Assembly: GCA_963779415.1 (NCBI GenBank)
Contig: CAVZYA010000001.1
Span: forward strand, 544,001 to 608,000
Reading direction: 5' to 3'
Length of the DNA: 64,000 nt
Origin: an uncultured Acidobacteriota bacterium
GTDB lineage: Bacteria > Acidobacteriota > Thermoanaerobaculia > UBA5066
Below the pieces are notes generated by a model. It worked only from the letters and a program-made list of their open reading frames with translations, ran no database searches and was not told where the DNA came from. The translations under genes and the position numbers were made by a program. Each line of letters starts with the position of its first letter. Within the stretch, counting starts at the first letter, position 1. Of the stretch, positions 3,510 to 26,872 are shown piece after piece.

Positions 3510-4210
3510 ACGCCCGCCTCGAGACGCGCGAGCTCACCGGCGGCTACCCCGGGGTGAGCGTTTTCTCGGATGTCGGGCTCTCCGTCGAACCCGGCGAGGT
3601 CCTGACGATCCTGGGGGCCAACGGATCCGGGAAGTCCGCGCTTCTCGAGACGCTCCAGGGCCTCCTTCACCCCCGCCACGGGGCCATTCTTCTGGACGGC
3701 GAGCCGGTGCAGGATCTTCCGCCCGAGGTCCGCGCCGCACGCGGAATGAGCCTCGTCTCGGATCGTCGCCGTCTCTGGAAGGAGATGACCGTCCGGGAGC
3801 ATCTGCGGGTCGGCGCATACCGCCGGGCCGCGCGGGGCGGCTGGCGACGCCGTGAAGCATTCTTCCGGAATCTCTTCCCGGCTCTTTCCGGGAAACGCGG
3901 GGCGCGACCGGGGCAGCTGAGCAGCGGTCTCCAGCAGCAGCTCGCGCTGGCCCGATTCGGAATGTCGTCCCCGCGCGTCTGGCTCCTCGACGATCCTCTC
4001 CGGGGCCTCGACGAGTCGGCGTCGAGGCGCGCGCTCGAATGGATACGGGATTCGGCCGGCGGCGGCGCCGCCGTCGTCCTGACGGGCCAGAACGTTCCGG
4101 CGCTCCTCGGCGTCGCCACGAAGGCGATGCTGCTCGAAGAGAGCCGCCTCTCCCCGATCCCCTCCGGTGCCGACGGCCTGCGGGACCCGCGGGTGCGCCG
4201 GCTGCTCTGA
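3506..4210 (+). CDS. livF: LivF-like ABC ATPase with degenerate motifs
   Basis: GTGA overlap with the upstream stop; Walker A GANGSGKS, signature LSSGLQQ, Walker B WLLDDP. Confidence 0.8.
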   Translation: MNARLETRELTGGYPGVSVFSDVGLSVEPGEVLTILGANGSGKSALLETLQGLLHPRHGAILLDGEPVQDLPPEVRAARGMSLVSDRRRLWKEMTVREHLRVGAYRRAARGGWRRREAFFRNLFPALSGKRGARPGQLSSGLQQQLALARFGMSSPRVWLLDDPLRGLDESASRRALEWIRDSAGGGAAVVLTGQNVPALLGVATKAMLLEESRLSPIPSGADGLRDPRVRRLL

Positions 4211-4247
4211 ATTCCCGGCGGAGAAGAGTCGTATAGTCGTCGCCACC

Positions 4248-4658
4248 ATGAGTGAGCCTCTCCTCAATTCAACGGCGTCCGCGCGCCTCAAGGTGGCGCC
4301 CTCCGACCTCGCCAACACCCTGAATTTCGAGCCCGGGGACTCGTTCCCGCCGGTGTTCGCCACCTCCCGCATGGTGGCTCTGATGGAGGTGGCCGCCGCC
4401 CGGGTTCTCGGCCCCCATCTGGCAGCGGGCGAAGTCTCCGTGGGCGTCTCCATCGATGTCGTCCACACGGCCGCCACTCCCCCGGGCGCCACGGTGACCG
4501 CCACGGCGAAGTTCGTCGGACGGGACGGAAAGCTCTTCCTCTTCGAACTCTCGGCGGCGGACGACGCGGGTGAAATCGGAAAAGGGACTCACAAACGGGC
4601 GATCGTCGCGTCGGAGAGGATCGTCGCCGGCGCGGCCAAGCGCCGAGCGCAGAGCTGA
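4248..4658 (+). CDS. Hotdog thioesterase, fluoroacetyl-CoA thioesterase (FlK)-like
   Basis: VFATSRMVALME...VVHTAATPPG matches the FlK Thr/Glu/His motif pattern. Confidence 0.8.
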   Translation: MSEPLLNSTASARLKVAPSDLANTLNFEPGDSFPPVFATSRMVALMEVAAARVLGPHLAAGEVSVGVSIDVVHTAATPPGATVTATAKFVGRDGKLFLFELSAADDAGEIGKGTHKRAIVASERIVAGAAKRRAQS

Positions 4659-4666
4659 ACCGCCGG

Positions 4667-6697
4667 TCAGTCCGCCCTACCGAGGACGACCCGCGCATCC
4701 ACGACCGTGAGCCCGCTCTCGTGAACGAGGACCGGATTCAGGTCCATCTCGTCGATCTCGGGGTGCCGCGCCACGAGGTCCGAGAGCTGCACGAGAAGGC
4801 GGCGCAGGGCCGACACGTCGGCCGGCCTCGCTCCGCGGACCCCTTTGAGCAGCTTCGCTCCCCGGGTCTCCTCGATCATCTCGGCCGCGTCTTTCTCTCC
4901 GAACGGCACGATCCGGAAGGAGACGTCCTTGAAGAGCTCCACGAGAGTCCCCCCCATGCCGAACATGACGGCATGCCCGAACTGGAGATCGCGGGTCACC
5001 CCGACGATGACCTCCGGTCCGGCCGCGGACATGGCGCTCACGAGGACTCCCCCGTCCCGCGCGCCGATTCGCTTCACGATGCCGCCGATCTCCCGGAAGG
5101 CCTTCCGGACTCCCGACTCGTCTCTCACGTTCAGGATCACTCCCCCGACGTCGCTCTTGTGCGTCACGTCGACGGAGTTCATCTTCACCGCGACGGGGTA
5201 TCCGATCTCCCCCGCCGCCCGGACGGCCTCCTCCTCGTTCCCAGCCTGCCGCGAGGAAACGACCGGCAACCCCTCGCGCACGAGAAAGCTGATGGAGTCT
5301 GCCGGGGAGAGTGACCTCGCGGCGGACGACGGAGCCGATGCCACGGCCGCCGGGGCCGCCTCCACCGTCCGGGGCCAGCGGTCGCCGGCGAAGCGGACAT
5401 GGCAGGAGAGCGCCTTGACGGCGCGCTCCGGCGTCGGAAAGACGGCGATTCCCTTCTCGTGAAGGAGAAGCCGCTCGGCGCGCTCCACGTCGGCGCCGCC
5501 AAGGAACGCGACGAGGTCGTTCCGGCCCGGCTCCAGGGCCGTCGAGGCGTTTGCGATCGGATCCCCGAAGATCGTCAGAACGACGTCGTAGTGATCCCGT
5601 GACGTCGCGATGACTTTCCGGAAACAGTCGGCGTCGCCGTCGCCCGTCAGGTCGAGGGGGTTCCCGACGATGAAATGGGATGGCAGCGTCCGCCGCAGCT
5701 CCGAAGCCAGGGCCGCGGGGAGCGGGCTCACGTGGAAACCGTTGTCCGCCGCGACGTCGGTGGCGATGATGGCCGAGCCTCCGGAGCTGGTGACGATCAG
5801 CATCCGGGGGCCCGCGGGTGCGGGAACGTAGGCGAGGGCCTTGGAAAAATCGTAGAGCTCCTCGAGGGAGGCCGCGCGGTGGATCCCGTACTGCCGGAAG
5901 ACCGCGTCGTAGATCTCGTCCTTCGTGGCGAGCGTCCGGGTGTGCGATTCGGCGGCCTTGCGTCCCTGATCGGTCCGGCCGGCCTTGAAGATGACGATGG
6001 GCTTGCGGCATTCCTTCACGGCGGCCAGGAACCGTTTGGGGTCGCGTATGCCTTCGATGTAAAGGGTGATCACCTTCGTGTTCGGATCGGACGCGAAGAA
6101 GGTGATCAGGTCGGCCTCGTCCACGTCGATCCGGTTCCCCATGCTCACGAAGGCCGAAAAGCCGAGCCTCTCCTCGGCCGCCCAGTCGATCAGCGCCGCC
6201 CCGACGGTTCCGCTCTGAGACGCGATGGCCATCGCCCCTTTCCGCGTGATGAGCGGCCAGGAGGCGCAGAGGCCGTGGTGGGGGTAGTTCACTCCCTGGC
6301 AGTTCGGACCGACGACGCGGATGCCGCACCGGGTGGCGTTCTTCTTCAGCTCTTCCTGAAGGCGGGCCCCGTCCGACCCCGATTCGGCGAAACCTCCCGT
6401 GATGACGATGGCCGCCCGGACCTTCCGTTCGCCGAGCTGAAGGATCGTCTCGGGGACGGAGAGGGCCGGAACGATGACGACGGCCAGGTCCGTTCCGGAC
6501 GGGATCTCCCCCACCGACCGGACGGACGGCGTTCCGAGAATCGTCTCCCCCTTCGGATTCACGGGGGTGACGGGCCCGGCGAAGCCCGCGTCGAGGATGT
6601 TCTTCAGGATCTGGTACCCGAGCTTCCCCGGTTTCGCGGAGGCGCCGATGACGGCAAGGCCGTTCGGCCGAAAGAGAGCCTGCAGGGAGTCGTTCAT
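4667..6697 (-). CDS. ADP-forming acetate/acyl-CoA ligase, fused alpha-beta (ACD)
   Basis: CoA-binding AVIGAS, GPNCQG, SQSG, catalytic AESHT, ATP-grasp HKSDVGGV, DLNPV; both phospho-His positions present. Confidence 0.9.
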   Translation of the reverse strand: MNDSLQALFRPNGLAVIGASAKPGKLGYQILKNILDAGFAGPVTPVNPKGETILGTPSVRSVGEIPSGTDLAVVIVPALSVPETILQLGERKVRAAIVITGGFAESGSDGARLQEELKKNATRCGIRVVGPNCQGVNYPHHGLCASWPLITRKGAMAIASQSGTVGAALIDWAAEERLGFSAFVSMGNRIDVDEADLITFFASDPNTKVITLYIEGIRDPKRFLAAVKECRKPIVIFKAGRTDQGRKAAESHTRTLATKDEIYDAVFRQYGIHRAASLEELYDFSKALAYVPAPAGPRMLIVTSSGGSAIIATDVAADNGFHVSPLPAALASELRRTLPSHFIVGNPLDLTGDGDADCFRKVIATSRDHYDVVLTIFGDPIANASTALEPGRNDLVAFLGGADVERAERLLLHEKGIAVFPTPERAVKALSCHVRFAGDRWPRTVEAAPAAVASAPSSAARSLSPADSISFLVREGLPVVSSRQAGNEEEAVRAAGEIGYPVAVKMNSVDVTHKSDVGGVILNVRDESGVRKAFREIGGIVKRIGARDGGVLVSAMSAAGPEVIVGVTRDLQFGHAVMFGMGGTLVELFKDVSFRIVPFGEKDAAEMIEETRGAKLLKGVRGARPADVSALRRLLVQLSDLVARHPEIDEMDLNPVLVHESGLTVVDARVVLGRAD

Positions 6698-7636: not shown

Positions 7637-7849
7637 TCAGGCCGCGCGGCGCATTTCGACGTCACGGGGGAGGAAATCGACCAGCTCCGACTCTGAAGAG
7701 GACGACTCCGTCCAGAAGAACCTCTTTCCGGCCTTTTCCTTGTCGGCGAGAGAGCCGAGAAGAATCCCTTCGACGGCGATGACGAGAAGCGCCAGGGCGG
7801 CAAGAACAACTCCCGGCCCGACGGTGAGTTCCGTAAGAATGCCTTCCAT
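7637..7849 (-). CDS. Small single-TM hypothetical protein (70 aa)
   Basis: Purine-rich RBS-like sequence before ATG; hydrophobic VVLAALALLVIAV followed by a charged tail; fills the intergenic gap. Confidence 0.45.
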   Translation of the reverse strand: MEGILTELTVGPGVVLAALALLVIAVEGILLGSLADKEKAGKRFFWTESSSSESELVDFLPRDVEMRRAA

Positions 7850-7908: not shown

Positions 7909-7924
7909 TGTGCGACCTTTCACA
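7909..7924. promoter_or_regulatory. CRP/FNR-type (or Rex-type) palindromic operator TGTGC-N6-TCACA
   Basis: TGTGCGACCTTTCACA, 9/10 match to TGTGA-N6-TCACA, in the divergent intergenic region near the Crp/Fnr gene. Confidence 0.6.
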
Positions 7925-7957
7925 ACCCTCTCGGAAAGGAAGCTAGACTCGCCCCGC

Positions 7958-9805
7958 GTGATCGAAAACCAGCGACGCGCAGACGAGAGGCCTTTCAGCG
8001 TCCCTCGGTCGAAACAGGAGATCCTCGGGGATCTCGAGACATTGATCGCGGAGAGAAAGCTCTTCGGCGCGGAGCTGAACCCGACGATTCTCAAGAAGAG
8101 CGGCAAGGGAGCGCGATTTCTCGTCAGCAAGGTTCCCTCGCGGCGAAAGCTCCTTCGGAGCTGGAGGGCCCTCTTCGAGGACCGGATCCCGCCCGCCGCC
8201 CTCTTCCGGGCCCTCGGTCCCCGCTACGGCGAGTTCTCGCACCGGGAGAGCCTCCTCCTCTTCGGCAGGAACCGCATCCTCTACGACACGCAGATTCTCG
8301 AGGGCGAGGAGAGCGTCGGCGAGGTGACGCTCAGCTTCGCGTCTCTCCCGGATCCGGCGCTCGGGCTCACGGCCTTTCTCCGGGGCCGCCGCATCAGGGT
8401 CGTCTACATCGACCACATCCGCGTGAACGCGCAGCGCTCCGGCTACGCCGCGACGCTGTTCCGCCACTACGAGGGGCTCTTCCGGGACCTGGGCTTCCGC
8501 GAGTTCCGGCTGAACGCGTCTCTTTCCATCGGTCGGTACTACTGGGGAAAGGAAGGATTCGATTTCGCCGACAGGTCCGAGGTCGAAAGGAGAAAGCAGG
8601 CCCTGCGTACTCTCGTCCGGGAGAAGGGCCTTCCCGTGCGCGAGATCGAGATCGGGCGTCTGAACCACCCGTTCGATCTCGCCGGGTTCCGGAAGGACCT
8701 GAGGATCCCCGTCTACCGGGATGCCGACGGATACCACTCGCTGACGGCCGATGAGCGGTTCACCGAGGAGGTCCAGCTGCCGCTGGGCAAGGCCTTCCTT
8801 CTCGCCTCGGCACCCTGGGAGGGGTACAAGACGATCTACACGAAGACACCCCGGAGGACGGGCTTCGTGACCTCTCCCGAATACCTTCGGCACCAGACCC
8901 GTGCCGGCCACCCGGAAAGCCACAAACGGCTCCGCGCCCTTCTCGCGGCCATCGAGAAGGAGGACCTCCGGAGGAGCCTCGTCTTCCTTCCTCCCTACGT
9001 CCCCGACCTCGAGTTCCTCGGGACGGTCCATGCCCCCGAGTACCTCGAGAGGTTCCGCGAGAGCGTCCGGAACGGAGACAAGATCTTCTCAACGAGAGAC
9101 TGCTCGATCTCGGCCGCGACCTGGGACGTCGCCCTTCTCGCGGCCGGCGGCGCGATGGCCGGCGTCGACGCCGTCATGAACGGGAGGGTCAAGAACGTCT
9201 TCTGCGCCGTGAGGCCCCCGGGGCATCACGCGGGACGGGCGTCCACGATGGGATTCTGCTTCATCAACAACGTGGCGGTCGGCGCCGTCTACGCACGGGC
9301 CGTCTACGGCGTCGAACGGATCTTCATCCTCGACTGGGACGTCCACCACGGAAACGGGACGCAGGCGATCTTCGAGGCGGACCCCCTGACGTACTACTGC
9401 AGCATCCACGAGCACCCGACCTTCTGCTTTCCGGGGACGGGACGGCGGATGGAGCGGGGAACGGGGGCGGGAGCAGGGTTCACGCTGAACCTGCCGCTCA
9501 AGCCGTTCGCGGGGGACGAGGAGCTGGTGGAGACCTTCGAGAGGGAGGTCGTCCCGGAGATCGACCGGTTCCGGCCCGGCCTGATCATGATCTCCGCGGG
9601 GTTCGACGGACACGACAACGACCCGATCGCCGACCTCCGGCTCACGAGGGAGTCATTCATCCACATGACGCGGAGGCTCTGCGAGCTGGCGGACCGCCAT
9701 TGCGCCGGCCGCATCGTCTCGGTTCTCGAAGGAGGGTACGAGGGCCCCTGGTTCGCCTCGTCGGTCCTCGCCCATCTCCTGACGCTTCAGGGAAGGAGCC
9801 AATAA
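7958..9805 (+). CDS. Fusion of N-terminal GNAT-like domain and Zn-dependent HDAC-family deacetylase
   Basis: HDAC motifs HPES..RL, RPPGHHA, GFC..NN, DWDVHHGNGT, SAGFD, LEGGY. The N-terminal ~300 aa contain IDHIRV-NAQRSGYAATL...GRYYWGKEGFDF (GNAT motif A/B-like). GTG 7958 preferred over 7910. Confidence 0.85.
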   Translation: MIENQRRADERPFSVPRSKQEILGDLETLIAERKLFGAELNPTILKKSGKGARFLVSKVPSRRKLLRSWRALFEDRIPPAALFRALGPRYGEFSHRESLLLFGRNRILYDTQILEGEESVGEVTLSFASLPDPALGLTAFLRGRRIRVVYIDHIRVNAQRSGYAATLFRHYEGLFRDLGFREFRLNASLSIGRYYWGKEGFDFADRSEVERRKQALRTLVREKGLPVREIEIGRLNHPFDLAGFRKDLRIPVYRDADGYHSLTADERFTEEVQLPLGKAFLLASAPWEGYKTIYTKTPRRTGFVTSPEYLRHQTRAGHPESHKRLRALLAAIEKEDLRRSLVFLPPYVPDLEFLGTVHAPEYLERFRESVRNGDKIFSTRDCSISAATWDVALLAAGGAMAGVDAVMNGRVKNVFCAVRPPGHHAGRASTMGFCFINNVAVGAVYARAVYGVERIFILDWDVHHGNGTQAIFEADPLTYYCSIHEHPTFCFPGTGRRMERGTGAGAGFTLNLPLKPFAGDEELVETFEREVVPEIDRFRPGLIMISAGFDGHDNDPIADLRLTRESFIHMTRRLCELADRHCAGRIVSVLEGGYEGPWFASSVLAHLLTLQGRSQ

Positions 9806-10440
9806 TGTTCGTCGGCAAGCGGATGACAAAGAACGTGATCACGGTCTCGCCGGGAGACACCCTGAAATTCGCCAGCCACGCCCTGATGGAGAACCGGATC
9901 CATCAGCTCCCGGTCGTGGAGAACGGCGAGCTGGTCGGCTTCGTGTCGGGCACGGACATCCGCAACTCGACCTTCGAGACCTCGACGGTCACGCAGCTCG
10001 GAAAGATCCTCGTGAAGAACCGGACCGTCGCGGAGATCATGATGCGCGACGTCGTCACGGTGATGCCGGAGGACACGATCGAAGACGCGCTCCTCGTCAT
10101 CCACAAGAGGAAGCTCGGGGCCCTCCCCGTCGTGGAGGGGCGGAAGCTGGTCGGGATCATCACGAAGCGGGACCTCCTGGCGGCCTTCTGCGACGCCCTC
10201 AAGATCGAGGAGCCGGGGGTCCGGATCGAGGTCATCCTCCCACGCGGGGCCGCTTCCCTCGTCCCCCTCGTTCGGAAGCTCGCGGACATGGAGGCCGAGA
10301 TCTGGAGCCTGATCCTTTCGCCCGTCCCCGGCGGCTTCCTCGCCCTCGTCCGCCTCGCCACGATCGACGCGGGTGGCGTTCGGAGGGCCCTTCGCGATGC
10401 CGGCTTCATCGTCCCGGACGTGGCGGACTTCCTGAAGTAG
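9805..10440 (+). CDS. acuB: AcuB-like CBS-pair + ACT protein
   Basis: MFVGKRMT...IHQLPVV...GALPVV...GIIT CBS pair plus C-terminal ACT-like region; TAATG coupling to the deacetylase. Confidence 0.8.
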   Translation: MFVGKRMTKNVITVSPGDTLKFASHALMENRIHQLPVVENGELVGFVSGTDIRNSTFETSTVTQLGKILVKNRTVAEIMMRDVVTVMPEDTIEDALLVIHKRKLGALPVVEGRKLVGIITKRDLLAAFCDALKIEEPGVRIEVILPRGAASLVPLVRKLADMEAEIWSLILSPVPGGFLALVRLATIDAGGVRRALRDAGFIVPDVADFLK

Positions 10441-10461: not shown

Positions 10462-11796
10462 CTACCGGAGCTGATAGCCTTTCATCTTCCGCCAGAGGGT
10501 ATTGCGCGAGATGCCGAGTGTGGCCGCGGCCCGGCCCCGGTGGCCGCCGTGCCGCGCGATCGCGTCGCGGATGGTCTCCGCCTCGGCCTGCTCCAGGGGA
10601 CTCGCGCCGGGGGGGGCCGCGATCGCCGGCGCGCCGGGGAGCGAGGCGATCTGGGAGGGGAGGTCGGAGACCTCGATGATCGAGCCGCCGCAGACCACGA
10701 AGGCGTGCTCGATGGCGTTTTCGAGCTCCCGCACGTTCCCGGGAAACGAATGGGACATGAGGCGCGCCATCGCCGTCACCGAGATACCCGAGATGCGCCT
10801 CCCCTGCGCGGCGTTGAAGCGCGCGATGAACCGCTCGACGAGGAGCGGGATGTCCTCTGGGCGGCTCCGGAGCGGCGGCAGGGTCAGCCGGACGATGTTC
10901 AGGCGGAAGTAGAGGTCCTGGCGGAAGCGCCGGTTCATCACCTCCGCCGCGAGGTCGCGGTTGGTCGCGGCAATGATCCGTACGTCGGCCTTCGCCGGCT
11001 TGACGGCGCCGAGCGGCGTGTACTCCCGCTCCTGAAGGACCCGCAGAAGCTTGACCTGTATGGCCGGCGACAGCTCGCCGACCTCGTCGAGGAGGAGCGT
11101 CCCTCCCTGCGCGAGGGCGAAACGGCCGGGCTTGTCCTTCTTGGCGTCGGTGAAGGCGCCGCGGACGTAGCCGAACAGCTCCGATTCCACGAGGGAGTCC
11201 GGGATGGCGCCGCAGTTGACCGCGACGAAGGGCTTTCGGGAGCGCGCCCCGAGGTTGTGGATCGCCCTCGCGACGAGCTCCTTTCCGGTGCCGGGCTCCC
11301 CCTCGATCAGGACGGTCGCGTCGCTCCGGGCGATGAGCGGCAGCATGTCGCGCACATGACGCATCGCCGCGCTCTTGGAGATGACGTCATCCGACTTGTA
11401 GCTGGCTTTCAGCTGGCGACGCAGCTCGGCGACCTCGGAGAGGTCGCGGAACATCTCGACCCCCCCGATCACCTGTCCGTCCTCGCCACGCAGCGCCGCC
11501 GTGCTGACGGCGATCGGAACGGAGCGCCCCTCCTTCCGGAGGATCGAGACCTCGCTGTCGGCATGGCTCTGGCCGGCCCGCATGCTGTCGCGCAAGAGGC
11601 AGTTCCTCTCGCATCCGGTGCTCCGGAGCACATCGCCACAGAAGCGCCCCAGAACCTCTTCCCGGCCGTAGCCCGTGATCTCCTCCGCCGTCCGATTGAA
11701 GGCCGTGATCCGGCAGTCGCCGTCTACGGTGAAGATCGCGTGCGGGATGGAGTTGAAGATCAGGTTCGCGTACCTGATGACGAGAGCCCGCTGCAT
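10462..11796 (-). CDS. PAS-containing sigma54-dependent transcriptional activator
   Basis: PAS, Walker A GEPGTGKE, ESELFG..GAFTDA, LLDEVGEL, Fis-type HTH LGISRNTLWRK. Confidence 0.95.
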   Translation of the reverse strand: MQRALVIRYANLIFNSIPHAIFTVDGDCRITAFNRTAEEITGYGREEVLGRFCGDVLRSTGCERNCLLRDSMRAGQSHADSEVSILRKEGRSVPIAVSTAALRGEDGQVIGGVEMFRDLSEVAELRRQLKASYKSDDVISKSAAMRHVRDMLPLIARSDATVLIEGEPGTGKELVARAIHNLGARSRKPFVAVNCGAIPDSLVESELFGYVRGAFTDAKKDKPGRFALAQGGTLLLDEVGELSPAIQVKLLRVLQEREYTPLGAVKPAKADVRIIAATNRDLAAEVMNRRFRQDLYFRLNIVRLTLPPLRSRPEDIPLLVERFIARFNAAQGRRISGISVTAMARLMSHSFPGNVRELENAIEHAFVVCGGSIIEVSDLPSQIASLPGAPAIAAPPGASPLEQAEAETIRDAIARHGGHRGRAAATLGISRNTLWRKMKGYQLR

Positions 11797-11847
11797 GTCG
11801 GCAATCTAACTCCTATGCTCCAGAAGTGCAACAACAGATGAAGAGAC

Positions 11848-11863
11848 GTCTCGAATCCGAGAC
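11848..11863. promoter_or_regulatory. Inverted repeat GTCTCG-N4-CGAGAC, candidate enhancer (UAS) for the adjacent activator
   Basis: Perfect 6-bp arms about 90 bp upstream of the -24 box. Confidence 0.5.
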
Positions 11864-11948
11864 ACCACAATCGCAGCTGTTCAGACAAGAGGCCGTGTTT
11901 TCGAAAGCCAACACATTGTCAACGAAGAAGATGCCGCCGCCGCCCCGA

Positions 11949-11963
11949 TGGCACGTTGATTGC
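11949..11963 (+). promoter_or_regulatory. sigma54 -24/-12 promoter
   Basis: TGGCACGTTGATTGC equals the consensus TGGCACG-N4-TTGC; upstream of the redox operon and next to a divergent activator gene. Confidence 0.9.
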
Positions 11964-12006
11964 CATAGAGGACCATGCGGGACGAACCGCAGCGCGGAGG
12001 GCTCGA

Positions 12007-13398
12007 ATGGCGCTAACAACTTCCTATTACATGGAGGCGGTCGACACGAAGAACCTCCCGGAGAGGTTCCTCGAGGCATTCGCCGCGATTCTTTCTCACT
12101 CGAACTACGCCGCCGTTCTCGACCTCTATGCCCGGATGAGCACGCGATGCGGACGCTGCGCCGCGAGCTGTCCGGTCTACGAGGCCTCCTGCGATCCGCG
12201 GGACATTCCGTGCAAGAGGTCGGAGCTGCTCCTCGACGTCTTCACCCGCTACTTCACCCCTCTCGGCGCCCTCAAGGCGCGCTTCGGCACTCCCTTCACC
12301 CTCACGGAGGAGCACATCAACAGGCTGGCAGAGGATCTCTACCGCTGCACCGCCTGCCGCCGGTGCAAGCTCGAGTGCCCGCTGGGGATCGACCACGCGA
12401 TGATCACCCACCTCGGCCGCTGGGTCCTTGCGGAGGTCGGCATCATTCCGAAGGCGCTCAAGGTGGCGGTGCGGGAGCAACTGGACGGAAAGACGCACAA
12501 CACGTCGGCGATTCCCGAGGCGGCGCTGCGCGACACGTGCGAGTTCCTCACGGACGACTGCAAGGACACCTGGGGGATGAAGATCGAGTTCCCGATCGAC
12601 CGGGAGGGGTCGGAATACGTCTTCTTCCCGGCGGTATCCGATTACCTCCTGGAGCCCGACACGCTGACGGGAAACTCCGCGGTCCTCACCGCGGCCGGCG
12701 CCTCCTGGACCATCGGCTCGCGTTACTTCGACGGGATCAACTACGGCCTCTTCTACTCCGACCGGATGCTCGACCGGATCCTGCAGCAGGAGGTCGCGGA
12801 GGTCCGCCGCCTCGGGGCACGCAAGATCCTGATCGGAGAGTGCGGGCACGCCTCGCGCTCGGCCAAGTTCTTCGTCCGGACTTTCGGCGGCGGCCGGAAC
12901 GCTCCCGAGGTGGTCAACATCATGGAGTACACGCTGAGGGCGCTTCGGGAGGGGAAGCTGGCCCTTAAGGCCGGTTCGATCGGCGAGCGCGTGACGTATC
13001 ACGATCCCTGCAACATCGCCCGATCGGGCTGGGTTGTAGAACAGCCACGCGAGATCCTTCGCGCCATCTGCTCGGACTTCGTCGAGATGACGCCGCACGG
13101 CCGCGAGAACTACTGCTGCGGGGGCGGAAGCGGGACCGTCTCCATCGACGAGATCCGCTCCTTCCGGACGCTCGTCGGCGGCAAGACCAAGGCGGAACAG
13201 ATCCGCCGCACCGGCGCCACCGTCCTGGTCGCCCCCTGCGCCAACTGCAAGAAGCAGCTCCGCGAGGTCTGCGAAGACCACGGCCTCAAGGACGTCCGGG
13301 TCGTCGGGTTGCACGATCTCCTCTTGCCGGCCCTCCAACCGCCTGCGGCCATGCGCGTCGAAAAACCGGCGGCCGACGAAGCCGCGAAGGGGGCGTGA
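12007..13398 (+). CDS. HdrD-like Fe-S/CCG-domain protein (HmcF/TmcB/DsrK family)
   Basis: CxxCxxxCP and CTACRRCKLECP clusters, ECGHA, YHDPCN, CCGGG, APCANC; GGAGG RBS. Confidence 0.85.
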   Translation: MALTTSYYMEAVDTKNLPERFLEAFAAILSHSNYAAVLDLYARMSTRCGRCAASCPVYEASCDPRDIPCKRSELLLDVFTRYFTPLGALKARFGTPFTLTEEHINRLAEDLYRCTACRRCKLECPLGIDHAMITHLGRWVLAEVGIIPKALKVAVREQLDGKTHNTSAIPEAALRDTCEFLTDDCKDTWGMKIEFPIDREGSEYVFFPAVSDYLLEPDTLTGNSAVLTAAGASWTIGSRYFDGINYGLFYSDRMLDRILQQEVAEVRRLGARKILIGECGHASRSAKFFVRTFGGGRNAPEVVNIMEYTLRALREGKLALKAGSIGERVTYHDPCNIARSGWVVEQPREILRAICSDFVEMTPHGRENYCCGGGSGTVSIDEIRSFRTLVGGKTKAEQIRRTGATVLVAPCANCKKQLREVCEDHGLKDVRVVGLHDLLLPALQPPAAMRVEKPAADEAAKGA

Positions 13399-13401
13399 CG
13401 C

Positions 13402-14103
13402 GTGGACGCCTGGATCGCCCTCGCGCGGGGCCCCCTCTTTCGCATCTCCCTCGCGGTCTGCGTGCTCGGCCTTCTCTACCGTGTCGGCGTCGCCTGCTAC
13501 TCCCTCCTGCGCGCGTGGCAGAGAGCGGGAGACCGGCTCCTGCCGCTCTCCGCGATCCGCCGCGCGACCCTGGAGTGGTTGGTGCCACGCCGTCTCCTCA
13601 AGGCGAGGCCGCTCTACTCGATCGCCTCGTTCGCGTTTCACGTCGGCATCATCGTCGTGCCGCTCTTCCTCGCCGGACACGTCCTCCTCTGGCAGCGCGA
13701 CCTGCCGGTCGCCTGGCTTGTGCTCCCCGCCTTCTGGGCCGACCTCCTGACCCTCCTCGCCACGGCGGCGCTCTTCGGTGTCCTCGTCGCCCGGGCCGTG
13801 ACGAAGGAGAGCCGCTTCCTGACGCAGACGCAGGACGTCGTGGTGCTCCTCCTCCTCGCAGGGGTGCTCGTCGCCGGCTTTCTCGCATCCCATCCGGGCC
13901 TCGCTCCGTTCGACGCACGGGCGCTGCTCCTAGCCCACGTCCTCCTCGGAGATCTGGTGCTGATCCTGACGCCCTTGACCAAGATCGTGCACTGCGTCCT
14001 CTTCCCATTCATGCAGCTCGCCGGAGAGATCGGCTGGCACTTCCCCGCCGAGAGCGGCCGCCACGTGGCGCTCGCCCTCGGCAAGGAGGGTGAGCGGATA
14101 TGA
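13402..14103 (+). CDS. NarI-like membrane di-heme b cytochrome (HmcE-like)
   Basis: About 5 TM helices with paired His (FHVG...AGH; LAH...TKIVH). Confidence 0.8.
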   Translation: MDAWIALARGPLFRISLAVCVLGLLYRVGVACYSLLRAWQRAGDRLLPLSAIRRATLEWLVPRRLLKARPLYSIASFAFHVGIIVVPLFLAGHVLLWQRDLPVAWLVLPAFWADLLTLLATAALFGVLVARAVTKESRFLTQTQDVVVLLLLAGVLVAGFLASHPGLAPFDARALLLAHVLLGDLVLILTPLTKIVHCVLFPFMQLAGEIGWHFPAESGRHVALALGKEGERI

Positions 14104-14909
14104 GCGCCTGGGGCATCCTGACCGACGTTACGAAGTGCATCGGCTGCGAGGAGTGCGTCGCCGCTTGCAAGCGGACGAACGCGACCGGAGAGGACGAGCC
14201 GTGGAGCTGGCAGGGCTCACCCGGGGATCTCTCGTCGACGCGGTGGACGACGATCGTCTCCGCGCCGCGCGGACGCTCCGTCCGCGTCCACTGTCGCCAC
14301 TGCCTCGAGCCGGCCTGTGCCTCGGCCTGTCCGGTGGGAGCGCTCCGCCGGACGAAGGAAGGCGCGGTCGCTTACGACGCGGACATCTGCATGGGCTGCC
14401 GCTACTGCATGATCGCCTGCCCGTTCAAGATGACCCGCTACGAGTGGGAGTCGGCCACCCCCCGGGTCCGCAAGTGCATCCTCTGCTACGACCGGATCCG
14501 TAAAGGCGAGATCAGGGAGCCGGCCTGTACGGCCGCCTGCCCGACGAAGGCGACGATCTTCGGCGACCGGGACACCCTCCTCGCCGAAGCCCGCCGCCGC
14601 ATCGCGGAGGAGCCGGGCCGATACGTCCACCACATCTGGGGCGAGCACGAAGTGGGAGGGACCTCAGTCCTCTACCTTTCCGACGTCAACCTCTCCACGG
14701 CTGGCTGGCCCTCTTCGCTGCGCGACACTTCGTATCCGGCGCTCACGCATCCGGCCATGCACGCCGTCCCTCCCGCGTTTCTCGGCGTGGGCGCCGTGAT
14801 GTTCGGCCTCTCGTGGGTGATCGGCCGCCGGGAGCGCCTCGCCCGGGAGGGGGATCCGGAAACTCCGCCGCACGAGAAAGGCAACACGCCTCCGAAGGCT
14901 ACGCCATGA
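14100..14909 (+). CDS. 4x[4Fe-4S] electron-transfer subunit (HmcB/HybA-like)
   Basis: CIGCEECVAAC, CRHCLEPACASACP, CMGCRYCMIACP, CILC...ACTAACP; C-terminal TM; no Tat leader. Confidence 0.9.
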   Translation: MSAWGILTDVTKCIGCEECVAACKRTNATGEDEPWSWQGSPGDLSSTRWTTIVSAPRGRSVRVHCRHCLEPACASACPVGALRRTKEGAVAYDADICMGCRYCMIACPFKMTRYEWESATPRVRKCILCYDRIRKGEIREPACTAACPTKATIFGDRDTLLAEARRRIAEEPGRYVHHIWGEHEVGGTSVLYLSDVNLSTAGWPSSLRDTSYPALTHPAMHAVPPAFLGVGAVMFGLSWVIGRRERLAREGDPETPPHEKGNTPPKATP

Positions 14910-16832
14910 GCACGCCCGTCAACATCCGCCTGGCCACGACCAAGGCCGTCCTCTGGCTCCTCGTCGGCGTGGCGACCGCCGTGGCGGCGGTGCGCTACGC
15001 GTACGGCCTCGGCCTGACAACGGCCCTCACGGACCTCACCCCCTGGGGTCTCTGGATCGGACTCGACGTCATGGCCGGTGTGGCGCTCGCCGCCGGGGGC
15101 TTCGTCATCGCGGCCACCGTGTACGTCTTTCACCGCGAGCGCTACCACGCTCTCGTCCGGCCCGCCGTCCTGACGGCTTTCCTCGGTTACGTGGCGGTCG
15201 TCCTCGGACTGCTCGTCGACCTCGGCCGGCCCTGGAACATCTGGCGAATGACCGTCCGCTGGCAGCCAACCTCCGCCCTCTTCGAGGTCGGCTGGTGCGT
15301 GATGCTCTACCTGACCGTCCTGACCCTCGAGTTCGCCCCGGTCGTCTTCGAGGGCTTGCGCTGGAATCGAGCTTTCGCTCTGCTCAAGCGCGCGACCCTC
15401 CCCCTCGTCATCGTCGGCATCGCTCTCTCCACGCTGCACCAGTCCTCCCTCGGGACGCTCCTCGTCATCGCACCCGAACGCCTCCACCCGCTCTGGTACT
15501 CGCCCATCCTGCCTCTGCTTTTCCTCGTCTCGGCCATCGGCCTCGGGCTCGCCACCGTCGTCGTGGAGGATGTAACGAGCACGTGGCTCTACCGGCGGCA
15601 GCCGGAGTGGGACCTCCTGCCGGCCCTGACGCGCGCCTCGGCTCTGGTTCTTCTGCTCTACCTCGCGCTCCGTGTCGGCGACCTGGCTTTTCGCGGGACG
15701 CTGGCACGTGTCCTGGAAGGCTCGTGGTGGTCGGCGCTCTTCGTCGTCGAGCTGCTGGTGAGCGTCGTCGTCCCCGTCCTGATCTTCCTCCTCCCCTCGA
15801 CGCGCAAGAGCCCCCGCGCCCTCTCCGTGGGCGCTTTCCTCGTCATTTCGGGATTCGTCTTCAACCGGGCCATGGTGGGAGGGATCGCCCAGCTCGCCCG
15901 GACCCGGGACTTCTACGTCCCGGCGGCCACCGAGCTCGCCATCAGCCTCGGGATCATCGCGGTGATGGCGCTGGTCTTCATGTTCTTCGTGGAGCACCTC
16001 GGAGTTTGGGAGACGCCGCCAGCGGCACCCGACCACTTCCGGCCGGCCGTGACCGACCGGGCCTCGGCCGTGCGCCTCCGCGGGCCCTGGTTCGGAAGCG
16101 TGCAACGCTCGGGTCTCGCGTGGGTCGTCGGCGTCCTCCTCGGACTGGGGATCGTCTCGGCCGAAGTCCGTCACCGCGGCATGGTCCGGGCGACTCCCGT
16201 GGCTCCGCCCCGGACGGTCACCGTGGACCGGTCGGATCGCCCCGGGGGGCTTCTGCATCAGCTCCGGCTTCTCCCGGCGACGGCCACCGGAGAGACGACC
16301 GAGAACGCGCTCCTCCTCTCGGCGGCCGGGAGCGGGCGGTACGTCCTTTTCGAGCATGACCAGCACCAGAAGAGGCTCGGCGGCGTCTCTTCGTGCCGCC
16401 GATGCCATCACCTCAACCTGCCTCTCGACAAGGCGACGCCCTGCGCGTCGTGTCACCGCGACATGTACGCGGCGACCGACATTTTCGGGCACGAGCGGCA
16501 TGTCGTTTCCCTCGGCCGCAACGCCTCCTGCTCGAGGTGCCACGCTCCCGGAAGGGCGCAGACGAGGGAGGCGTCGACCCCCTGTGCGTCGTGCCATGCC
16601 GCGGAAGGCGGCCCGCCCGTCGGCCTTGGCGAGAGAAAGGATGCCGCCGGTATCGCGCCCGGCTATCGGCGAGTCCCTCCACTCCCTCTGCATCTCGTGC
16701 CATCGGTCCGAGGAGGCGCGGACCGGACGAAAGCCGTATCTCTCGCGCTGTCCGGCCTGTCATCGCGGGGCGGCCGCTGGCGACGAGAACCTCCGGGTCC
16801 GCGAAGGCGCGGTCCTCCTGGCGAGAAGATGA
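14906..16832 (+). CDS. NrfD/HybB (HmcC-like) membrane subunit fused to a six-heme c-type cytochrome; +1 frameshift near 16668
   Basis: PWGLWI, DLGRPW, LHQSSLG, HPLW motifs; then CRRCH, CASCH, CSRCH, CASCH and, after the frame change, CISCH, CPACH (ORF 16356..16832); ATGA overlap with the next gene. Confidence 0.8.
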
Positions 16833-17255
16833 TGCGCGAAATGCCGGCTCACCCACGCCCGCGGGTGGCGGTGGTCGATGACGAGCCAGACGTCCTGACG
16901 TTCGTGCGGCTCGCTCTCGACGACCGGGGGTTCGACGTCCTGACCCTCGACCGCGTCGCCGGAGCGCTTCCCGCGCCTCCACGCCTTCGCCCCGGACGCG
17001 GTCTGCCTCGACCTCTTGATGCCGGAGCGGACGGGACTCTCGCTCCTCGTCGAGATCCGGAAGGATCCCGATCTGGCGAAGGTCCCGGTGCTCATCCTCT
17101 CGGCACTCAACGCCCGGGAGGAGCTCCTCGCGACCCTCCGCCGCGAGGGACTCGGCCCGGAGCCTGCCGCCTTCGTCGAGAAGCCGCTGGATATGGAGTC
17201 GCTGGTCCGGGCCTTGCGCGAGTGCCTGGGGATCGCGGTAGGAGGTGGGCCATGA
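16829..17255 (+). CDS. Single-domain response regulator; +1 frameshift near 16976
   Basis: VAVVDDEP ... CLDLLMPERTG ... ILSA ... FVEKP split over two frames. Confidence 0.75.
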
Positions 17256-19126
17256 CGACGCTTGCTCGCCGGCAGGCCCTCTTGCGCGCCGGGCTGTTCG
17301 ACGAACATTCCGAGCGAAATCGCGATCATCGACCGGACGCTGCGGCTCGTCGACAACAACCGCGCCTGCGTCGAGCAGCACGGCGAGGGGCTCGGAGCAG
17401 CCGTGCTATCGAGTCCTCAGGGGCCGGAACACGCCCTGCAGGGACTGCCCGGCGCCCCGAGTCTTCGCCGAGGGCCGGCCCTCTGTGCTGGAGACGACCG
17501 GGCGCGACAAACAGGCCCGGGCGTTCCCACCTCCTGCTGCAGCTCATCCCGCTCCGCGGGCGCGAAAGGCGACGTGACCCACCTCGCGGAGCTCGCCATC
17601 GACCTGACGGCATCGAGACAGCTCCAGAGCGAATACCAGACGCTCTTCGAGAAAGTGCCGTGCTACGTCTGCGTTCTGAACCGGGACTTCCGGGTCGTCA
17701 AGGCGAACGAGCGGTTCCGTGAGGTCTTCGGGGTCGCGGCCGGAGAGCCCTGCCACATGGTCTACAAGCGGCGGCCGATGAAATGCACGAACTGCGCCGC
17801 GGAGAAGGTCTTTGCCGACGGCGTCCTGCGCACGGCGCACCATGCCGGCGTCACCCGTGAGGGGAAGGCCGCCTACTACATCGTGAGCACCGCGCCTCTG
17901 CTCCACTCGGGAAACGAGGTCACACACGTCATCCAGATGGCCCTGGACGTGACCGAGCTGCGCGCCTTGAGGCAGGAGCTGGATCAGGCGAGCCGCCTTC
18001 GCGAGGCGCTCGTGGAGACCTCGCCGGAGGCCATCGTCGTCCTGGACAACGCCGGGAAGGTCCTGATCTTCAACCGCGCCGCCGAGGCGCTCTGGGGCGT
18101 GGCGCGCCAACGCGTGGTCGGCCACGTCTGGCGCTCCGCGTTCCTGGAGGCCTCGGTGGTCGATCTCTATCGCGGCCGTCAGGAGCGCCTCGAGCTCGAG
18201 GAGACGCTGGCCGCGCCCCGGCAGGGCGAGCCGATCCCGGTGCTCGCGTCGGGCGTGACGTCTGCGGGATGAGGACGGGGGCGTCGCTGGGGCGGCCCTG
18301 CTGCTGCACGACCTTCGGGCGCGAAAGCAGCTCGAGAAGGAGAAGCTGGAGGCCGAGCGCCTGGCCGCCGTGGGCCAGACGGTCGCCGGGCTGGCCCACG
18401 GCATCAAGAACATTCTCACCGGTCTCGAGGGCGGAATGTACGTGACCTCCACGGGCCTCGAACGGCACGACGACGCCCGCATCCGCCAGGGCTGGGGGAT
18501 GCTGGAGCGCAACATCGGCAGGATCTCCACGCCTCGCCCGCAACCTGCTGGAGTTCTCGCGCGGCGAGGAGCCGCACCCGGAGATGGTGGATCCGGCGGC
18601 CCTCGTGGCCGAGGTCGCCGACCTCTATCGCGACAGCGCCCGCCAGCACGGCGTCGAGATCGTGGTCGAGGCGAACGGGCCCGTGCGGCCCGCCTCGCTC
18701 GACCACAAGGGCGTGGCGAGCTGCCTGGAGAACCTGGTCTCCAACGCCCTCGACGCCTGCCTCGTCAGCCGCCGCCCCTCGCCCCGGATCACGCTTCGCG
18801 CCATGGATCACGGTGATAACCTCGAGTTCGAAGTCGCCGACACCGGGTGCGGCATGGACTACGAGGTCAAGCAGAAGGTCTTCACGAGCTTCTTCTCCAC
18901 GAAGGGCGCCGGGGGGACGGGGATCGGCCTGCTCCTGACGCGGAAGATCGTCCAGCAGCACGGCGGCGCCATCACGTTCGAGACGACGCCGGAGACGGGG
19001 ACCACGTTCCGGCTGACGTTCCCCCGGGAGCGCCTGCCACGACCGGCGGCGGGGGCAACGGGGCCCCGGAAGGCAGTTCCCGCCGAGAGCGGCGCCGGGG
19101 CGGTCCCCGAGGCCAGGAAGGAGTGA
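17252..19126 (+). CDS. Cytoplasmic triple-PAS histidine kinase; six +1 frameshifts
   Basis: Reassembled from ORF fragments: Cys-motif PAS domains, ERLAAVGQTVAGLAHGIKN (H-box), NLVSNA, DTGCG, FFSTK, GTGIGL. Breaks near 17303, 17396, 17527, 17559, 18261, 18532. Confidence 0.75.
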
Positions 19127-24066: not shown

Positions 24067-26872
24067 ATGCGAACCCTCTTCCTGCCGCCGACCTACCAGG
24101 ACTCCGCGGAATCGGGTCGGCTCATCCTGCGCGACGGATCGACGGCATTCATCCGCCCGGCAGAGCCGTCGGACTTCGAAGAGCTGCGGGAGTTCTTTCG
24201 CCAGCTCTCGCCCGAGTCGAAGCGCCGCCGCTTCTTCTCCATCGCCGACCCGGCGAAGGCGCTCCTCGAACGGCAGTGCGATTCCTCCAATCCCCGCGTC
24301 CAGCTGACTCTGATCGTCATCCGGATCGTGAGCGGCGCCTCGCGGATCATCGCGACCGCCTCCTACGTCGCGCGGGACGAGACGAGCGCCGAGGTCGCCT
24401 TCGCGGTCGACGACGAGTTCCAGGGACGAGGCCTCGGAGGCCTCCTTCTCGAGCGCCTGGCCCTCATCGCCGCCCGGTACGGCTTTGTCCGCTTCTGGGC
24501 CGTGACGCGTCTCGAGAACGCCCTGATGCTCGACACGTTCCGCCGCTCGGGCTTCCCGCTCCACACGAAGGTCGAGGACGAGTGTGTCGAGATCGACTTC
24601 TCCGTCGCCCAGAGCGAGGACAGCGTCAGTCACTCGGAGTCGCGGGACCGTCTCTTCACCACGGCCTCGCTCCACCCCCTGTTCCGTCCCCGCGCCGTCG
24701 CCCTCATCGGCGCCTCACGCGACGTCTCCAGCATCGGCTGGCGCATCCTCGACGGGCTCGTTCAGAGCGGCTTTCACGGCCCGGTCTACGCGGTGAACCC
24801 GAATGCGACGCACGTCCACTCGCTGCCGGCCTACTCTTCGGCCCGCGAGATCCCGAAGGGGACCGATCTCGCCATCGTGGCGATCCCGCGCGAGGGCGTG
24901 CTGGATGCCGTGGACGATTGCGCCGCCGCCGGCGTCCGCGCCCTCGTCGTCGTCACGGTCGGCTTTCTGGACAGCTATTCCGGAGGACGTGACCTGCAGG
25001 AGAAGCTCCTCGAGAGGGTTCGCGGCCACGGGATGCGCCTCGTCGGTCCCAACTCGATGGGCGTCGTCAACACCGATCCGGAGATCCGGCTCAACGCCTC
25101 GGTCTCCCCCGTCCTGCCTCCACGCGGGAGCGTGGCGATGTCGTCCCAGAGCGGCGTCCTCGGCATGGCGATGCTGGCTCTCGCGCGGCAGCGCCATGTC
25201 GGCGTCTCGACCTTCATCAGCGTCGGCAACAAGGCCGACATCTCCGGCAACGACCTTCTGCAGTACTGGCAGGGGGACGATGCGACACGCGTCATCCTTC
25301 TCTATCTGGAGTCCTTCGGAAATCCGCGCCGCTTCGCCCGGATCGCGCGGGTCGTGAGCCGGGAAAAGCCGATCGTCGTCGTGAAGGCGGGACCGGCCCC
25401 GGAGCCCGCCCGATCCGCCGCCGCGACGCTCGTCGCGGGCGAAGCCGTCGTGAACGCGCTCTTCCGTCAGACGGGGGTCATCCGGGCCGACACGCTGGAC
25501 GAGATGTTCGACCTCGCGGCCGCTCTCGACCGGCAGCCTCTTCCGGCAGGGCGCCGCGTCGCGATCCTCTCGGACGGGAGCGGTCCCGGCATCCTCTGCG
25601 CGGGCGCCTGCGAGGCGGCCCGTCTGACCGTGCCGCCGCTCTCGGAGACGACGGCGGAGCGGCTCGCGACTTTCCTCCCCTCCGGCACGCCGATCGGCAA
25701 CCCCCTGGAGCTCGTCTTCTCGCCGACTCCGGAGCCGTACCGGCAAGCCCTCGAGACGCTCCTCAAGGCTCCCGAAGTGGACGCCCTCATCGCGATTCAC
25801 ACGCCGCTCGACGAGAGCGGTTCGGAGGCCATGGTGGAGGCGATCCGGCAGGGAGCCGCGGCGGCGCGCGCCTCGGGAGGCGACGGCAAGCCGGTCCTCG
25901 CGTGCCTCCTCGCGAAGGAGGACGCCGGTGCGCCGGTGGTTCTCGGAGAGTCGAGCATTCCGACGTATGCGTTTCCGGAGTCGGCCGCGCGGGTTCTCGG
26001 GAAGGTGGCCGCTTACGCGGAGTGGCGCGCCGGCTCCGCACGGGGTCATTCCCGACTTCGACGACATCGACCCGGCGGCCGCCCGTTCGATCTGCCGGAA
26101 AGCGATCGAGGAGCGCGGAGCCGGACCTCTCACTTCGGACGAGGCGAGGGCGGTCCTTCAGGCCATGCACCTTCCCGTCGCTCCGGGCGGGGTCGCCCGG
26201 ACGCCCGACGAGGCCGTGGCGCTCGCCCGGGGAATCGGATTTCCCGTCGCCGTCAAGCTCGCTTCTCCCCGGATCCGCCAGAAGACCGAGAAGGGAGCCG
26301 TTCACCTGAACGTGGAGGAGGAGATCGGGGTCCGGCTGGCTTTCGGGGCGATCCGAAAGACGAGGGAAGCGGATCACAACCCGGAGGCGATGGAGGGAGT
26401 GCTGGTCCAGCCGATGGCCGGAACCGACGTCGAGGTGATGGTGAGAGTCGTGGAGGACCCTCTCTTCGGGCCTCTCGTCGTCTTCGGTCTGGGCGGGATC
26501 CACGTCGAGGTGATCGCCGATGCGGGTCTGCGCGTGACGCCGCTGACCGATCGCGCCGCCCAGGCGATGGTCCGGGAGATCCGGGGTTATTCCCTCCTCG
26601 AGGGGTACCGGGGGCATCCTCCCGCCGACGTTTCGGCCATCCACGACGTCCTTCTGCGCGTCTCTCGCCTCGTCGAAGAGGTCCCCGACATCTCGGAGGT
26701 CGATCTGAGCCCGATCTTCGTCGGGCCCCCCGGCGGAGGGTGCTACATCTTCGACTCGCGAATCGACGTGGCTCTCCCCCGGAAGGACCGGGCGGCCCGC
26801 TACACCGTTCCCCCCCTTCCCGTCGTCCGCAAGGAAGCGGTCGCCATCTCCCCCGCCGAGGCGCCGAGGTAG
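24067..26872 (+). CDS. pat: Pat-type protein lysine acetyltransferase (N-terminal GNAT + inactive ACD-like domains); +1 frameshift near 26032
   Basis: LRDGS..IRP, LSPES..RRFF, AEVAFAV.D.FQGRGLG; ACD scaffold lacking both His (no SHT; QKTE instead of HKSD); C-terminus in ORF 25928..26872. Confidence 0.85.

Follow-up and report, generated by a model that had tools for sequence, protein, structure and literature searches.

A 64,000-nt stretch of DNA from an uncultured Acidobacteriota bacterium (contig CAVZYA010000001.1, positions 544,001 to 608,000; referred to as the window) contains a gene in which a divergent GNAT-like domain is joined to a complete zinc deacetylase domain, and which is followed directly by the gene for an AcuB-type sensor protein (Table 1). 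The fusion architecture itself is near certain. The joining of these two halves, with an AcuB-type sensor gene always next in order, suggests a single protein that could turn protein acetylation on and off. We rate the chances as about even that the two genes form an acu-like module for reversible acylation that is assembled from non-orthologous parts, a model in which catalysis, the target, and the binding and gating by the AcuB-like protein are all predicted from homology and gene order.

The uninterrupted open reading frame (ORF) extends on the plus strand from position 7910 to 9805 (631 aa), with the GNAT-like half preceding the deacetylase half. The start was placed at the GTG codon at 7958, because the database copy of the window's own protein comprises 615 aa. 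All residue numbers refer to the 615-aa protein, except for the Pfam span, which refers to the 631-aa ORF. The stop codon TAA (9803-9805) and the start codon ATG at 9805 of the CBS gene overlap by one base (TAATG), and GGAAGGAG is located just upstream of this ATG. An earlier note, made from the sequence alone, had described an uninterrupted ORF with start coordinate 7958, a set of GNAT-like and deacetylase motifs, and a stop codon overlapping the start of a CBS-ACT gene. The start agrees with the 615-aa database twin, the overlap is the TAATG, and all quoted motifs were located on the translation. The value of GC3 (G+C content at third codon positions) is 0.87 in the fusion ORF, the G+C content of the window is 65-72%, and homologues of the same architecture exist in many independent assemblies; the GC3 and these homologues argue against a chance ORF. 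The full-length AlphaFold model of the fusion (pLDDT 86.3, pTM 0.87) has no low-confidence linker, which suggests a fixed two-domain body. NCBIfam assigned the protein to none of its families, and Pfam detected Hist_deacetyl alone, with nothing in the first ~330 residues.

Table 1. Coordinates of the fusion gene, its predicted domains and motifs, and the related genes in the window.
Feature	Coordinates	Strand	Basis
Fusion gene, 615 aa: GNAT-like N-domain and class II zinc deacetylase domain	7958..9805	+	ORF; start from database twin; full-length AlphaFold model
N-domain, ~residues 1-300: divergent GNAT core (~19-205) and ~90-aa C-terminal subdomain	7958..8857	+	AF2, Foldseek
Predicted acyl-CoA pyrophosphate loop Q159-R-S-G162-Y-A164 (QRSGYA)	8432..8449	+	Translation, conservation, consensus, model
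YYWGKEGF, GNAT motif-B-like helix, invariant Y194, Y195, W196	8537..8560	+	Translation, conservation
Class II (HDAC6/HdaH-like) Zn-dependent deacylase domain; H423/H424, D461, H463, D550, Y594	8858..9802	+	Pfam, PDB matches, motifs
Deacylase motifs	RPPGHH 9212-9229; DWDVHHGNGTQ 9332-9364; SAGFD 9593-9607; EGGY 9728-9739	+	Translation
AcuB-like Bateman (CBS-CBS) and ACT protein, 211 aa	9805..10440	+	Pfam CBS x2; PDB; synteny
ADP-forming acyl-CoA synthetase (ACD), 676 aa, divergent from the fusion; candidate partner or target	4667..6697	-	Pfam, PDB
Canonical AcuB, CBS x2 and ACT (Pfam-detected), GsAcuB E 5.8e-41	35099-35725	-	Pfam, PDB
Class I AcuC-like deacetylase	33981-35126	-	Best single-stretch matches HDAC8, HDAC2, RPD3, E ~1e-51

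The C-terminal half matches Pfam PF00850 (Hist_deacetyl) over residues 334-624 with an E-value of 8.6e-91. The deacylase motifs align to their counterparts in HDAC6 and are conserved in 76 homologues, and we assume for the listed residues the usual deacylase roles of the tandem histidines, the Asp-His-Asp zinc ligands and the catalytic tyrosine. The closest solved structures belong to class II, namely the second domain of HDAC6 (domain E 1.4e-51) and HDAH of P. aeruginosa (5g0x, E 2.9e-61), and other high-ranking relatives are the FB188 HDAH (1zz0), HDAC4/7 and the lysine deacylase 5zmp. Judged by its sequence, the domain is thus an intact class II deacylase and not of the class I/AcuC type. 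The claim of the earlier note that all metal-binding and catalytic HDAC motifs are retained was borne out by Pfam, the PDB alignments and the translation alike.

The evidence that the N-domain is a GNAT comes from its fold, its motifs and its relatives. An AlphaFold (AF2) model built from 78 sequences reached a pLDDT of 84 and a pTM of 0.80. When this model was compared with the PDB using Foldseek, the top rows were GNATs (AtaT, TacT, GmvT, Naa50, Gcn5, PCAF, PaiA, Ard1), and the best match was AtaT (7chd, E 2.9e-4, probability 1.00). In the model, the QRSGYA loop is positioned between a strand (145-156) and a helix (163-178). Sequence and position agree with the GNAT P-loop consensus in PMC4964394 (Gln/Arg-x-x-Gly-x-Gly/Ala, preceded by strand 4 and followed by helix 3), and the loop is similar to those of Gcn5 and PCAF given there. 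Across 49 N-domains, six of them standalone, the residues G162, Y163, A164, Y194, Y195, W196, E199, G200 and F201 are invariant, and Q159 is conserved in at least 90%, with R in some homologues. Pfam matches below threshold were found in the same 49 domains for IDM1_C (18/49, best E 0.0057), Acetyltransf_10 (4/49) and Acetyltransf_1 (4/49). IDM1_C is a GNAT-type acetyltransferase domain. The ESM Atlas returned 'hypothetical protein' clusters alone, one of which carries PF00583 on 20% of its members. By analogy with the GNAT mechanism described in PMC4964394, a tyrosine in YYWGKEGF is a candidate general acid.

The prominence of AtaT, TacT and GmvT in the Foldseek results raised the possibility of a GNAT toxin with the deacylase as its antidote. 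This was rejected, because the matches cover the generic GNAT core (~100 columns) and the genomic context, with its AcuB partner, is metabolic and regulatory.

Transitive homology points in the same direction as the fold. An exhaustive phmmer search with the N-domain yielded 121 representatives. Beyond its own family, the relatives are orphans of 240-340 aa and proteins of 1000-3000 aa, the latter with E-values from 1e-12 to 1e-4. Among the first 25 relatives scanned with Pfam, the large ones bear GNAT, ADP-ribosyltransferase, MuF and LPD1 domains, and in three of them (P0143, P0146 and P0162) an Acetyltransf_1 match overlaps the stretch that is aligned to the N-domain. A scan of 58 further relatives revealed a GNAT-clan match with E <= 0.01 in 14 proteins, which overlaps the matched stretch in 13, and five of these 13 overlapping matches exceed the gathering cut-off. 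In BFVD, a collection of predicted viral structures, Foldseek retrieved uncharacterised phage proteins over 250-300 columns (E 7e-11), for example from the Bacillus phages CP-51 and JL, and the matches in PHROGs (phrog_25452 and phrog_27103) are both of unknown function. Taken together, the predicted fold, the motif and the transitive homology, none of which provides a single strong score, lead us to regard the N-domain as a divergent and hitherto unnamed lineage of the GNATs that has an additional C-terminal subdomain of ~90 residues. The earlier note had called this half GNAT-like with an acetyl-CoA loop; the GNAT fold and the invariant P-loop sustain this description. The domain is predicted to bind acyl-CoA and to transfer the acyl group.

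The fusion is not a peculiarity of one genome. A search with residues 1-330 of the ORF retrieved 169 proteins of 347-1105 aa. Among the matches listed, PF00850 was present in 116 of 120 relatives, which are ~600-650 aa long. In the source databases, family members are named only 'histone deacetylase' or 'AcuC-like' ('acetoin utilization deacetylase AcuC-like enzyme'). A locus scan with one genome per species gave 69 loci, 60 with both halves, eight with the N-domain only and one cut by the end of a contig. These counts also settle a question raised in the earlier note, namely whether the fusion is present in other genomes. The hosts are metagenome-assembled genomes (MAGs) of Thermoanaerobaculia/Acidobacteriota and of the Deferrimicrobia type, many of them labelled 'Deltaproteobacteria', and a few loci were binned to other phyla. 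Some of the contigs with the fusion are 1-3.9 Mb long, so that the fusion cannot be an assembly chimera. Across 76 full-length homologues, the N-domain is about as conserved as the deacylase domain. Most homologues also have a conserved C-terminal tail (consensus QGRSxxCxSxxx, with ECSSEKG in many rows), which the window protein lacks. At one locus (L002:7848-7869), the last ~22 nt of the fusion ORF overlap the AcuB-like gene, which is read in a different frame; from this overlap, the conservation of the tail would appear to reflect the overlapped start of the AcuB-like gene.

The N-domain also exists on its own. A search among shorter proteins gave 90 matches, ~80 of which have 270-337 aa; none has a Pfam domain, and the motifs are retained. 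Several of the standalone genes lie on contigs of 0.2-1.3 Mb and are thus not cut by contig ends, and gene calls revealed complete standalone genes at L058, L060, L061, L065, L067 and L069. The ~80 standalone proteins show that the N-domain is autonomous. Forms of 355-385 aa (P0054, P0063, P0069, P0094) were considered as a split gene. They look truncated or frameshifted, because unrelated residues follow the N-domain in the alignment, and they were not used. In an unrooted tree of 58 fused and 82 standalone N-domains, nine changes between the fused and the standalone state were counted, at least five of which are forced by well-supported branches. One standalone clade (51 rows) is nested among Acidobacteriota-type fused forms. 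Another (18 rows) has 47-50% identity to the N-domain of the window and includes members from three MAGs that also contain a fused copy (L033/L065, L048/L069, L037/L061). Because the tree is unrooted, it does not distinguish between gain and loss of the fusion. At one locus (L060:5057-6067), an N-domain gene is present without the deacylase half and without the AcuB-like gene, and its neighbours are those of the fused loci L018 and L026 (an APH-like kinase and GIY-YIG upstream, DUF2007 downstream). This looks like a joint clean loss or gain of the deacylase half and the AcuB-like gene.

The protein encoded downstream of the fusion aligns with AcuB structures over its full length, in agreement with the earlier assignment of the CBS-ACT neighbour as AcuB-type. 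It matches TTHA0829 (5awe, E 1.6e-26) over residues 2-206, with the ACT part included, B. subtilis AcuB (9qs7, E 1.6e-22), and G. stearothermophilus AcuB (9s4w, E 2.7e-22) over residues 5-203. Two G-h-h-S/T-x-x-D motifs are present (GFVSGTD and GIITKRD), which presumably bind ribose. In 51 of the fused loci, the sequence continues for 650 nt or more beyond the fusion, and in all 51 the next gene is the AcuB-like one, at 3-52 nt past the last matched residue. AcuB is an inhibitor of AcuC, with which it forms a complex, and its Bateman/CBS domains bind Ap4A or AMP (PMC13039410, PMC13121692; 2026); the binding of AcuC was mapped to the ACT domain (PMC13039410). A complex of the deacylase domain (residues 296-615) with the AcuB-like protein, predicted with both supplied as alignments, gave scores of 0.17 and 0.30 relative to a mark of 0.32, and counts neither for nor against an interaction.

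The window harbors a second pair of this kind, in which the canonical AcuB gene overlaps the start of the class I AcuC-like gene. The AcuC-like deacetylase has just 40% identity to the deacylase domain of the fusion over 172 residues (measured via the L013 orthologue). The upstream neighbour of the pair is a gene for a DUF4388 protein; AcuA-like genes were not seen next to the pair in the window. At five loci (L007, L008, L010, L013 and L014), the order is ACD, divergently the fusion, the AcuB-like gene, the canonical AcuB gene and the AcuC-like gene. The presence of this separate pair indicates that the fusion belongs to a parallel system and is not a fusion of acuA and acuC. The earlier note had reached the same view from the RPPGHH type of the deacetylase, and the class II matches together with the separate pair uphold it.

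These observations also bear on the annotation found in the databases, according to which the protein would be an ordinary deacetylase of the AcuC-like kind, extended at its N-terminus by an unrelated segment. The names in use for family members ('AcuC-like', 'histone deacetylase') are in its favor. However, the N-domain is conserved like the deacylase, folds as a GNAT and exists alone, the deacylase is of class II, and a separate class I AcuC-like gene is present in the window. Thus, this explanation is already contradicted, and we regard it as highly improbable.

The enzyme on which a switch of this kind could act is suggested by the ACD gene. The encoded protein contains the Pfam domains CoA_binding_2, Succ_CoA_lig and ATP-grasp_5, and its best solved match is 4-hydroxybutyrate-CoA ligase (8wzu, E 1.6e-115). 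It also matches the Pat-type 'Protein acetyltransferase' chains 9isq and 9it0 over residues 5-669 (E 1.2e-88). The histidine of the SHT motif is retained in the alignment; we take it to be the phosphorylated catalytic residue that is lost in Pat. We considered that the ACD might be the regulatory half of a split Pat-type acetyltransferase. Two features make this unlikely: the ACD resembles true ligases more closely, and its SHT histidine is preserved. An ACD homologue was found in the fetched flanks of 20 of the 69 loci. In Acidobacteriota-type fused loci, it is divergent from the fusion in 14 of 16, and the other two loci have ~1 kb or less of upstream sequence. At three distant loci (L023, L030, L051), it is convergent and located just after the AcuB-like gene, and at three others (L058, L067, L068) it adjoins a standalone or broken N-domain gene. 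At the remaining Deferrimicrobia-type loci, the neighbouring genes are diverse (APH-like kinase, GIY-YIG, DUF2007, Band 7, NlpC/P60), and none encodes an acyl-CoA enzyme. Of the suggestion in the earlier note that the ACD is a candidate target, the association therefore stands, on the basis of synteny at 20 of the 69 loci, in two arrangements and beside standalone N-domains; the role as a target is itself a prediction.

In the mechanism that we propose, the GNAT of the N-domain would bind acyl-CoA via its Q-x-x-G-x-A loop and acylate an amine, most likely lysines of target proteins, and the C-terminal class II zinc deacylase, rigidly packed on the N-domain, would take off the same mark. The Bateman domain of the co-translated AcuB paralogue would detect adenine nucleotides (or Ap4A), and the ACT domain of the paralogue would block the deacylase, as AcuB does to AcuC. 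Gating of the deacylase by the adenylate/Ap4A state would avert a futile cycle, and the supply of acyl-CoA and the energy state would jointly set the net direction. In Acidobacteriota, the nearby ACD would be the best candidate for a target or partner, as AcsA is for AcuA and AcuC. The functional core of the earlier note, a bifunctional enzyme switched by an adenylate-sensing AcuB, is likewise a prediction from homology and gene order. The most specific version, a single-chain writer and eraser of lysine acylation, with its direction set by the AcuB paralogue in response to adenylates or Ap4A and with the ADP-forming acyl-CoA synthetase as its target, is put forward only tentatively. If true, it would be the first case of acylation control of ADP-forming acyl-CoA synthetases and, outside Firmicutes, the first class II deacylase to be controlled in the manner of AcuB.

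Several observations weigh against this mechanism. With respect to the writer, the N-domain of the window reaches no gathering cut-off of the Pfam GNAT clan (the window protein matches none of these families), and a profile of the N-domain family searched against all PDB sequences found no solved GNAT, its sole match being a chance lipocalin (E 0.28). The structural matches to GNATs in the PDB span just ~100-110 of 301 residues, with TM-scores of 0.38-0.47 on the target. The candidate general base on strand 4 (position 152) is D or E in most homologues and G in one. With respect to the sensor, Pfam detects no ACT domain in the AcuB-like protein, the ACT part being too divergent, the protein is just 30% identical to the canonical AcuB of the window, and the known partner of AcuB is a class I enzyme, not a class II enzyme. 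With respect to the target, 49 of the 69 loci have no ACD in the fetched flanks. With respect to the eraser, the solved relatives of the deacylase domain include amidases acting on small molecules, dimethoate hydrolase (9gkw, E 4.7e-56) and propanil hydrolase (9gku, E 4.6e-55). Finally, the presence of writer and eraser in a single chain would be wasteful of acyl-CoA unless the two are reciprocally regulated, and none of the observations points to regulation of the GNAT half.

The failure of every GNAT model to reach its threshold and the variable general base would also be expected if the N-domain were a non-catalytic GNAT-like module that senses acyl-CoA or docks substrates, so that the protein would be a regulated eraser. 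The rigid packing of the domains in the model (pTM 0.87) would suit allostery, and O-GlcNAcase offers a precedent of a hydrolase with an acetyltransferase-like domain, the activity of which is described only as 'reported' (PMC3814719). Yet both the P-loop and the Tyr-rich motif B are invariant, the P-loop has kept the Gln/Arg that is missing from an inactive GNAT domain (PMC4964394), and the ~80 standalone proteins without a deacylase indicate that the domain has a role of its own. We therefore consider a non-catalytic N-domain unlikely.

The small-molecule amidases among the deacylase relatives would instead fit a cycle in which the GNAT acetylates an amine (polyamines, amino compounds, xenobiotic amides) and the HDAC-like amidohydrolase regenerates it. 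The polyamine deacetylase HDAC10 and the acetylpolyamine amidohydrolase (APAH) 3q9b belong to the same circle of relatives, and GNATs often modify small amines (PMC4964394). However, the best solved matches are the protein-lysine deacylases HDAC6, HDAH 5g0x and 5zmp, and APAH is a far weaker match (E 8.8e-33). That the AcuB-type partner is invariable and that a canonical AcuB/AcuC-like pair occurs in tandem both suggest the control of protein acetylation, and the GNATs of polyvalent proteins are predicted to modify proteins (PMC5512222). A small-molecule cycle is thus quite improbable, and the acu-like switch acting on proteins remains the reading that we prefer.

Further genes surround the module. 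Upstream of the fusion, the other strand encodes a 70-aa membrane ORF, a Crp/Fnr regulator and the ACD. The 70-aa ORF (7637-7849, minus strand) has one hydrophobic stretch, a good Shine-Dalgarno motif and no Pfam match. It is conserved (tblastn, 42-69% identity) near the fusion in L002, L005, L006, L009, L012 and L015, follows directly after the standalone N-domain gene in L065, and lies ~5 kb from the standalone gene in L069. Convergent with the ACD gene is a gene for a hotdog thioesterase of the FlK family (4167-4658, plus strand; Pfam FlK, E 1e-30). In L002, L005, L007, L009, L010, L013, L014 and L067, this gene likewise lies no more than a few kb from the ACD. A 314-aa protein (25928-26872, plus strand) contains an ATP-grasp_5 domain only, like the beta part of an ACD. 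The region 24350-25928 was left unassigned by a crude gene caller, and a split alpha subunit may lie there. Two more CBS-pair proteins are encoded on the plus strand (42481-42957 and 59803-60465), the second of them after an operon for a branched-chain amino acid ABC transporter and before a histidine kinase gene. Downstream of the AcuB-like gene, a sigma-54 PAS activator (10462-11796, minus strand) faces a redox cluster, the whole region extending from 10462 to 17722. The cluster encodes a CCG/Fe-S protein, a NarI-like membrane protein, a 4Fe-4S protein and an NrfD protein with a cytochrome c3 domain, and by analogy it would specify a Dsr/Hmc/Qrc-like membrane redox complex. A 969-aa ORF (14813-17722) in this region appears over-extended.

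Lysine acetylation in bacteria is usually the work of separate writers and erasers, and their coordination was clarified only in 2026, for AcuB-AcuC of Bacillus. The fusion family offers a compact model with which one could test how an acylation mark is set by the energy state and the supply of acyl-CoA. In addition, a GNAT-like domain that is otherwise found in uncharacterised phage and polyvalent proteins is seen here in a cellular context that bears on function. The names of ~250 protein clusters in the databases ('AcuC-like', 'histone deacetylase', 'hypothetical') overlook half of the protein. In the literature retrieved, most of it as search listings and abstracts, no GNAT-deacetylase fusion was described, and nothing was found on acetylation control of ADP-forming synthetases. 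The main text of a deacylase survey (PMC11532494) mentions, for the terms searched, neither a GNAT fusion nor an added N-terminal domain nor AcuB; its supplements might list such proteins.

Outside its own family, the nearest relatives of the N-domain are the GNATs in polyvalent proteins of phages and conjugative elements. PMC5512222 describes two GNAT families in such proteins, often adjoining an ADP-ribosyltransferase domain, and the N-domain may correspond to either of the two. In contrast to these, the version in the window is chromosomal, has a metabolic and regulatory context, and is fused to a deacylase. The Pat/PatZ enzymes likewise associate an NDP-forming acyl-CoA-synthetase-like protein with a GNAT, whereas here the ACD and the GNAT are separate genes on opposite strands, and the ACD has more in common with true ADP-forming ligases. 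In GlnE, GlnD and AceK, a single polypeptide both adds and removes a modification, steered by a small sensor protein or a metabolite. The likeness to these is conceptual, the chemistry (adenylylation, uridylylation, phosphorylation) and the folds being unrelated.

The closest parallel is acuABC of Bacillus subtilis and Geobacillus, with an acetyltransferase, a CBS-CBS-ACT protein and a zinc deacetylase, divergent from the gene for an acetyl-CoA-forming enzyme. Indeed, the order at the five loci described above resembles the divergent acsA/acuABC layout reported in PMC13121692. However, the writer is here an apparently unrelated, unnamed GNAT lineage that is fused to the eraser. The searches bearing on AcuA gave no NCBIfam family and, with the PDB profile, only the chance lipocalin, the presence of AcuA in these libraries being unconfirmed; by any test that yielded a result, the sequence of the writer does not appear AcuA-like. 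The eraser belongs to class II and not to the class I/AcuC type, only the AcuB part appears homologous, and the neighbouring synthetase is ADP-forming instead of AMP-forming. In addition, the hosts are Acidobacteriota and Deferrimicrobia-type MAGs, and a canonical AcuB/AcuC-like pair is present as well. Thus, the module would be a functional analogue of acuABC and is not a member of it.

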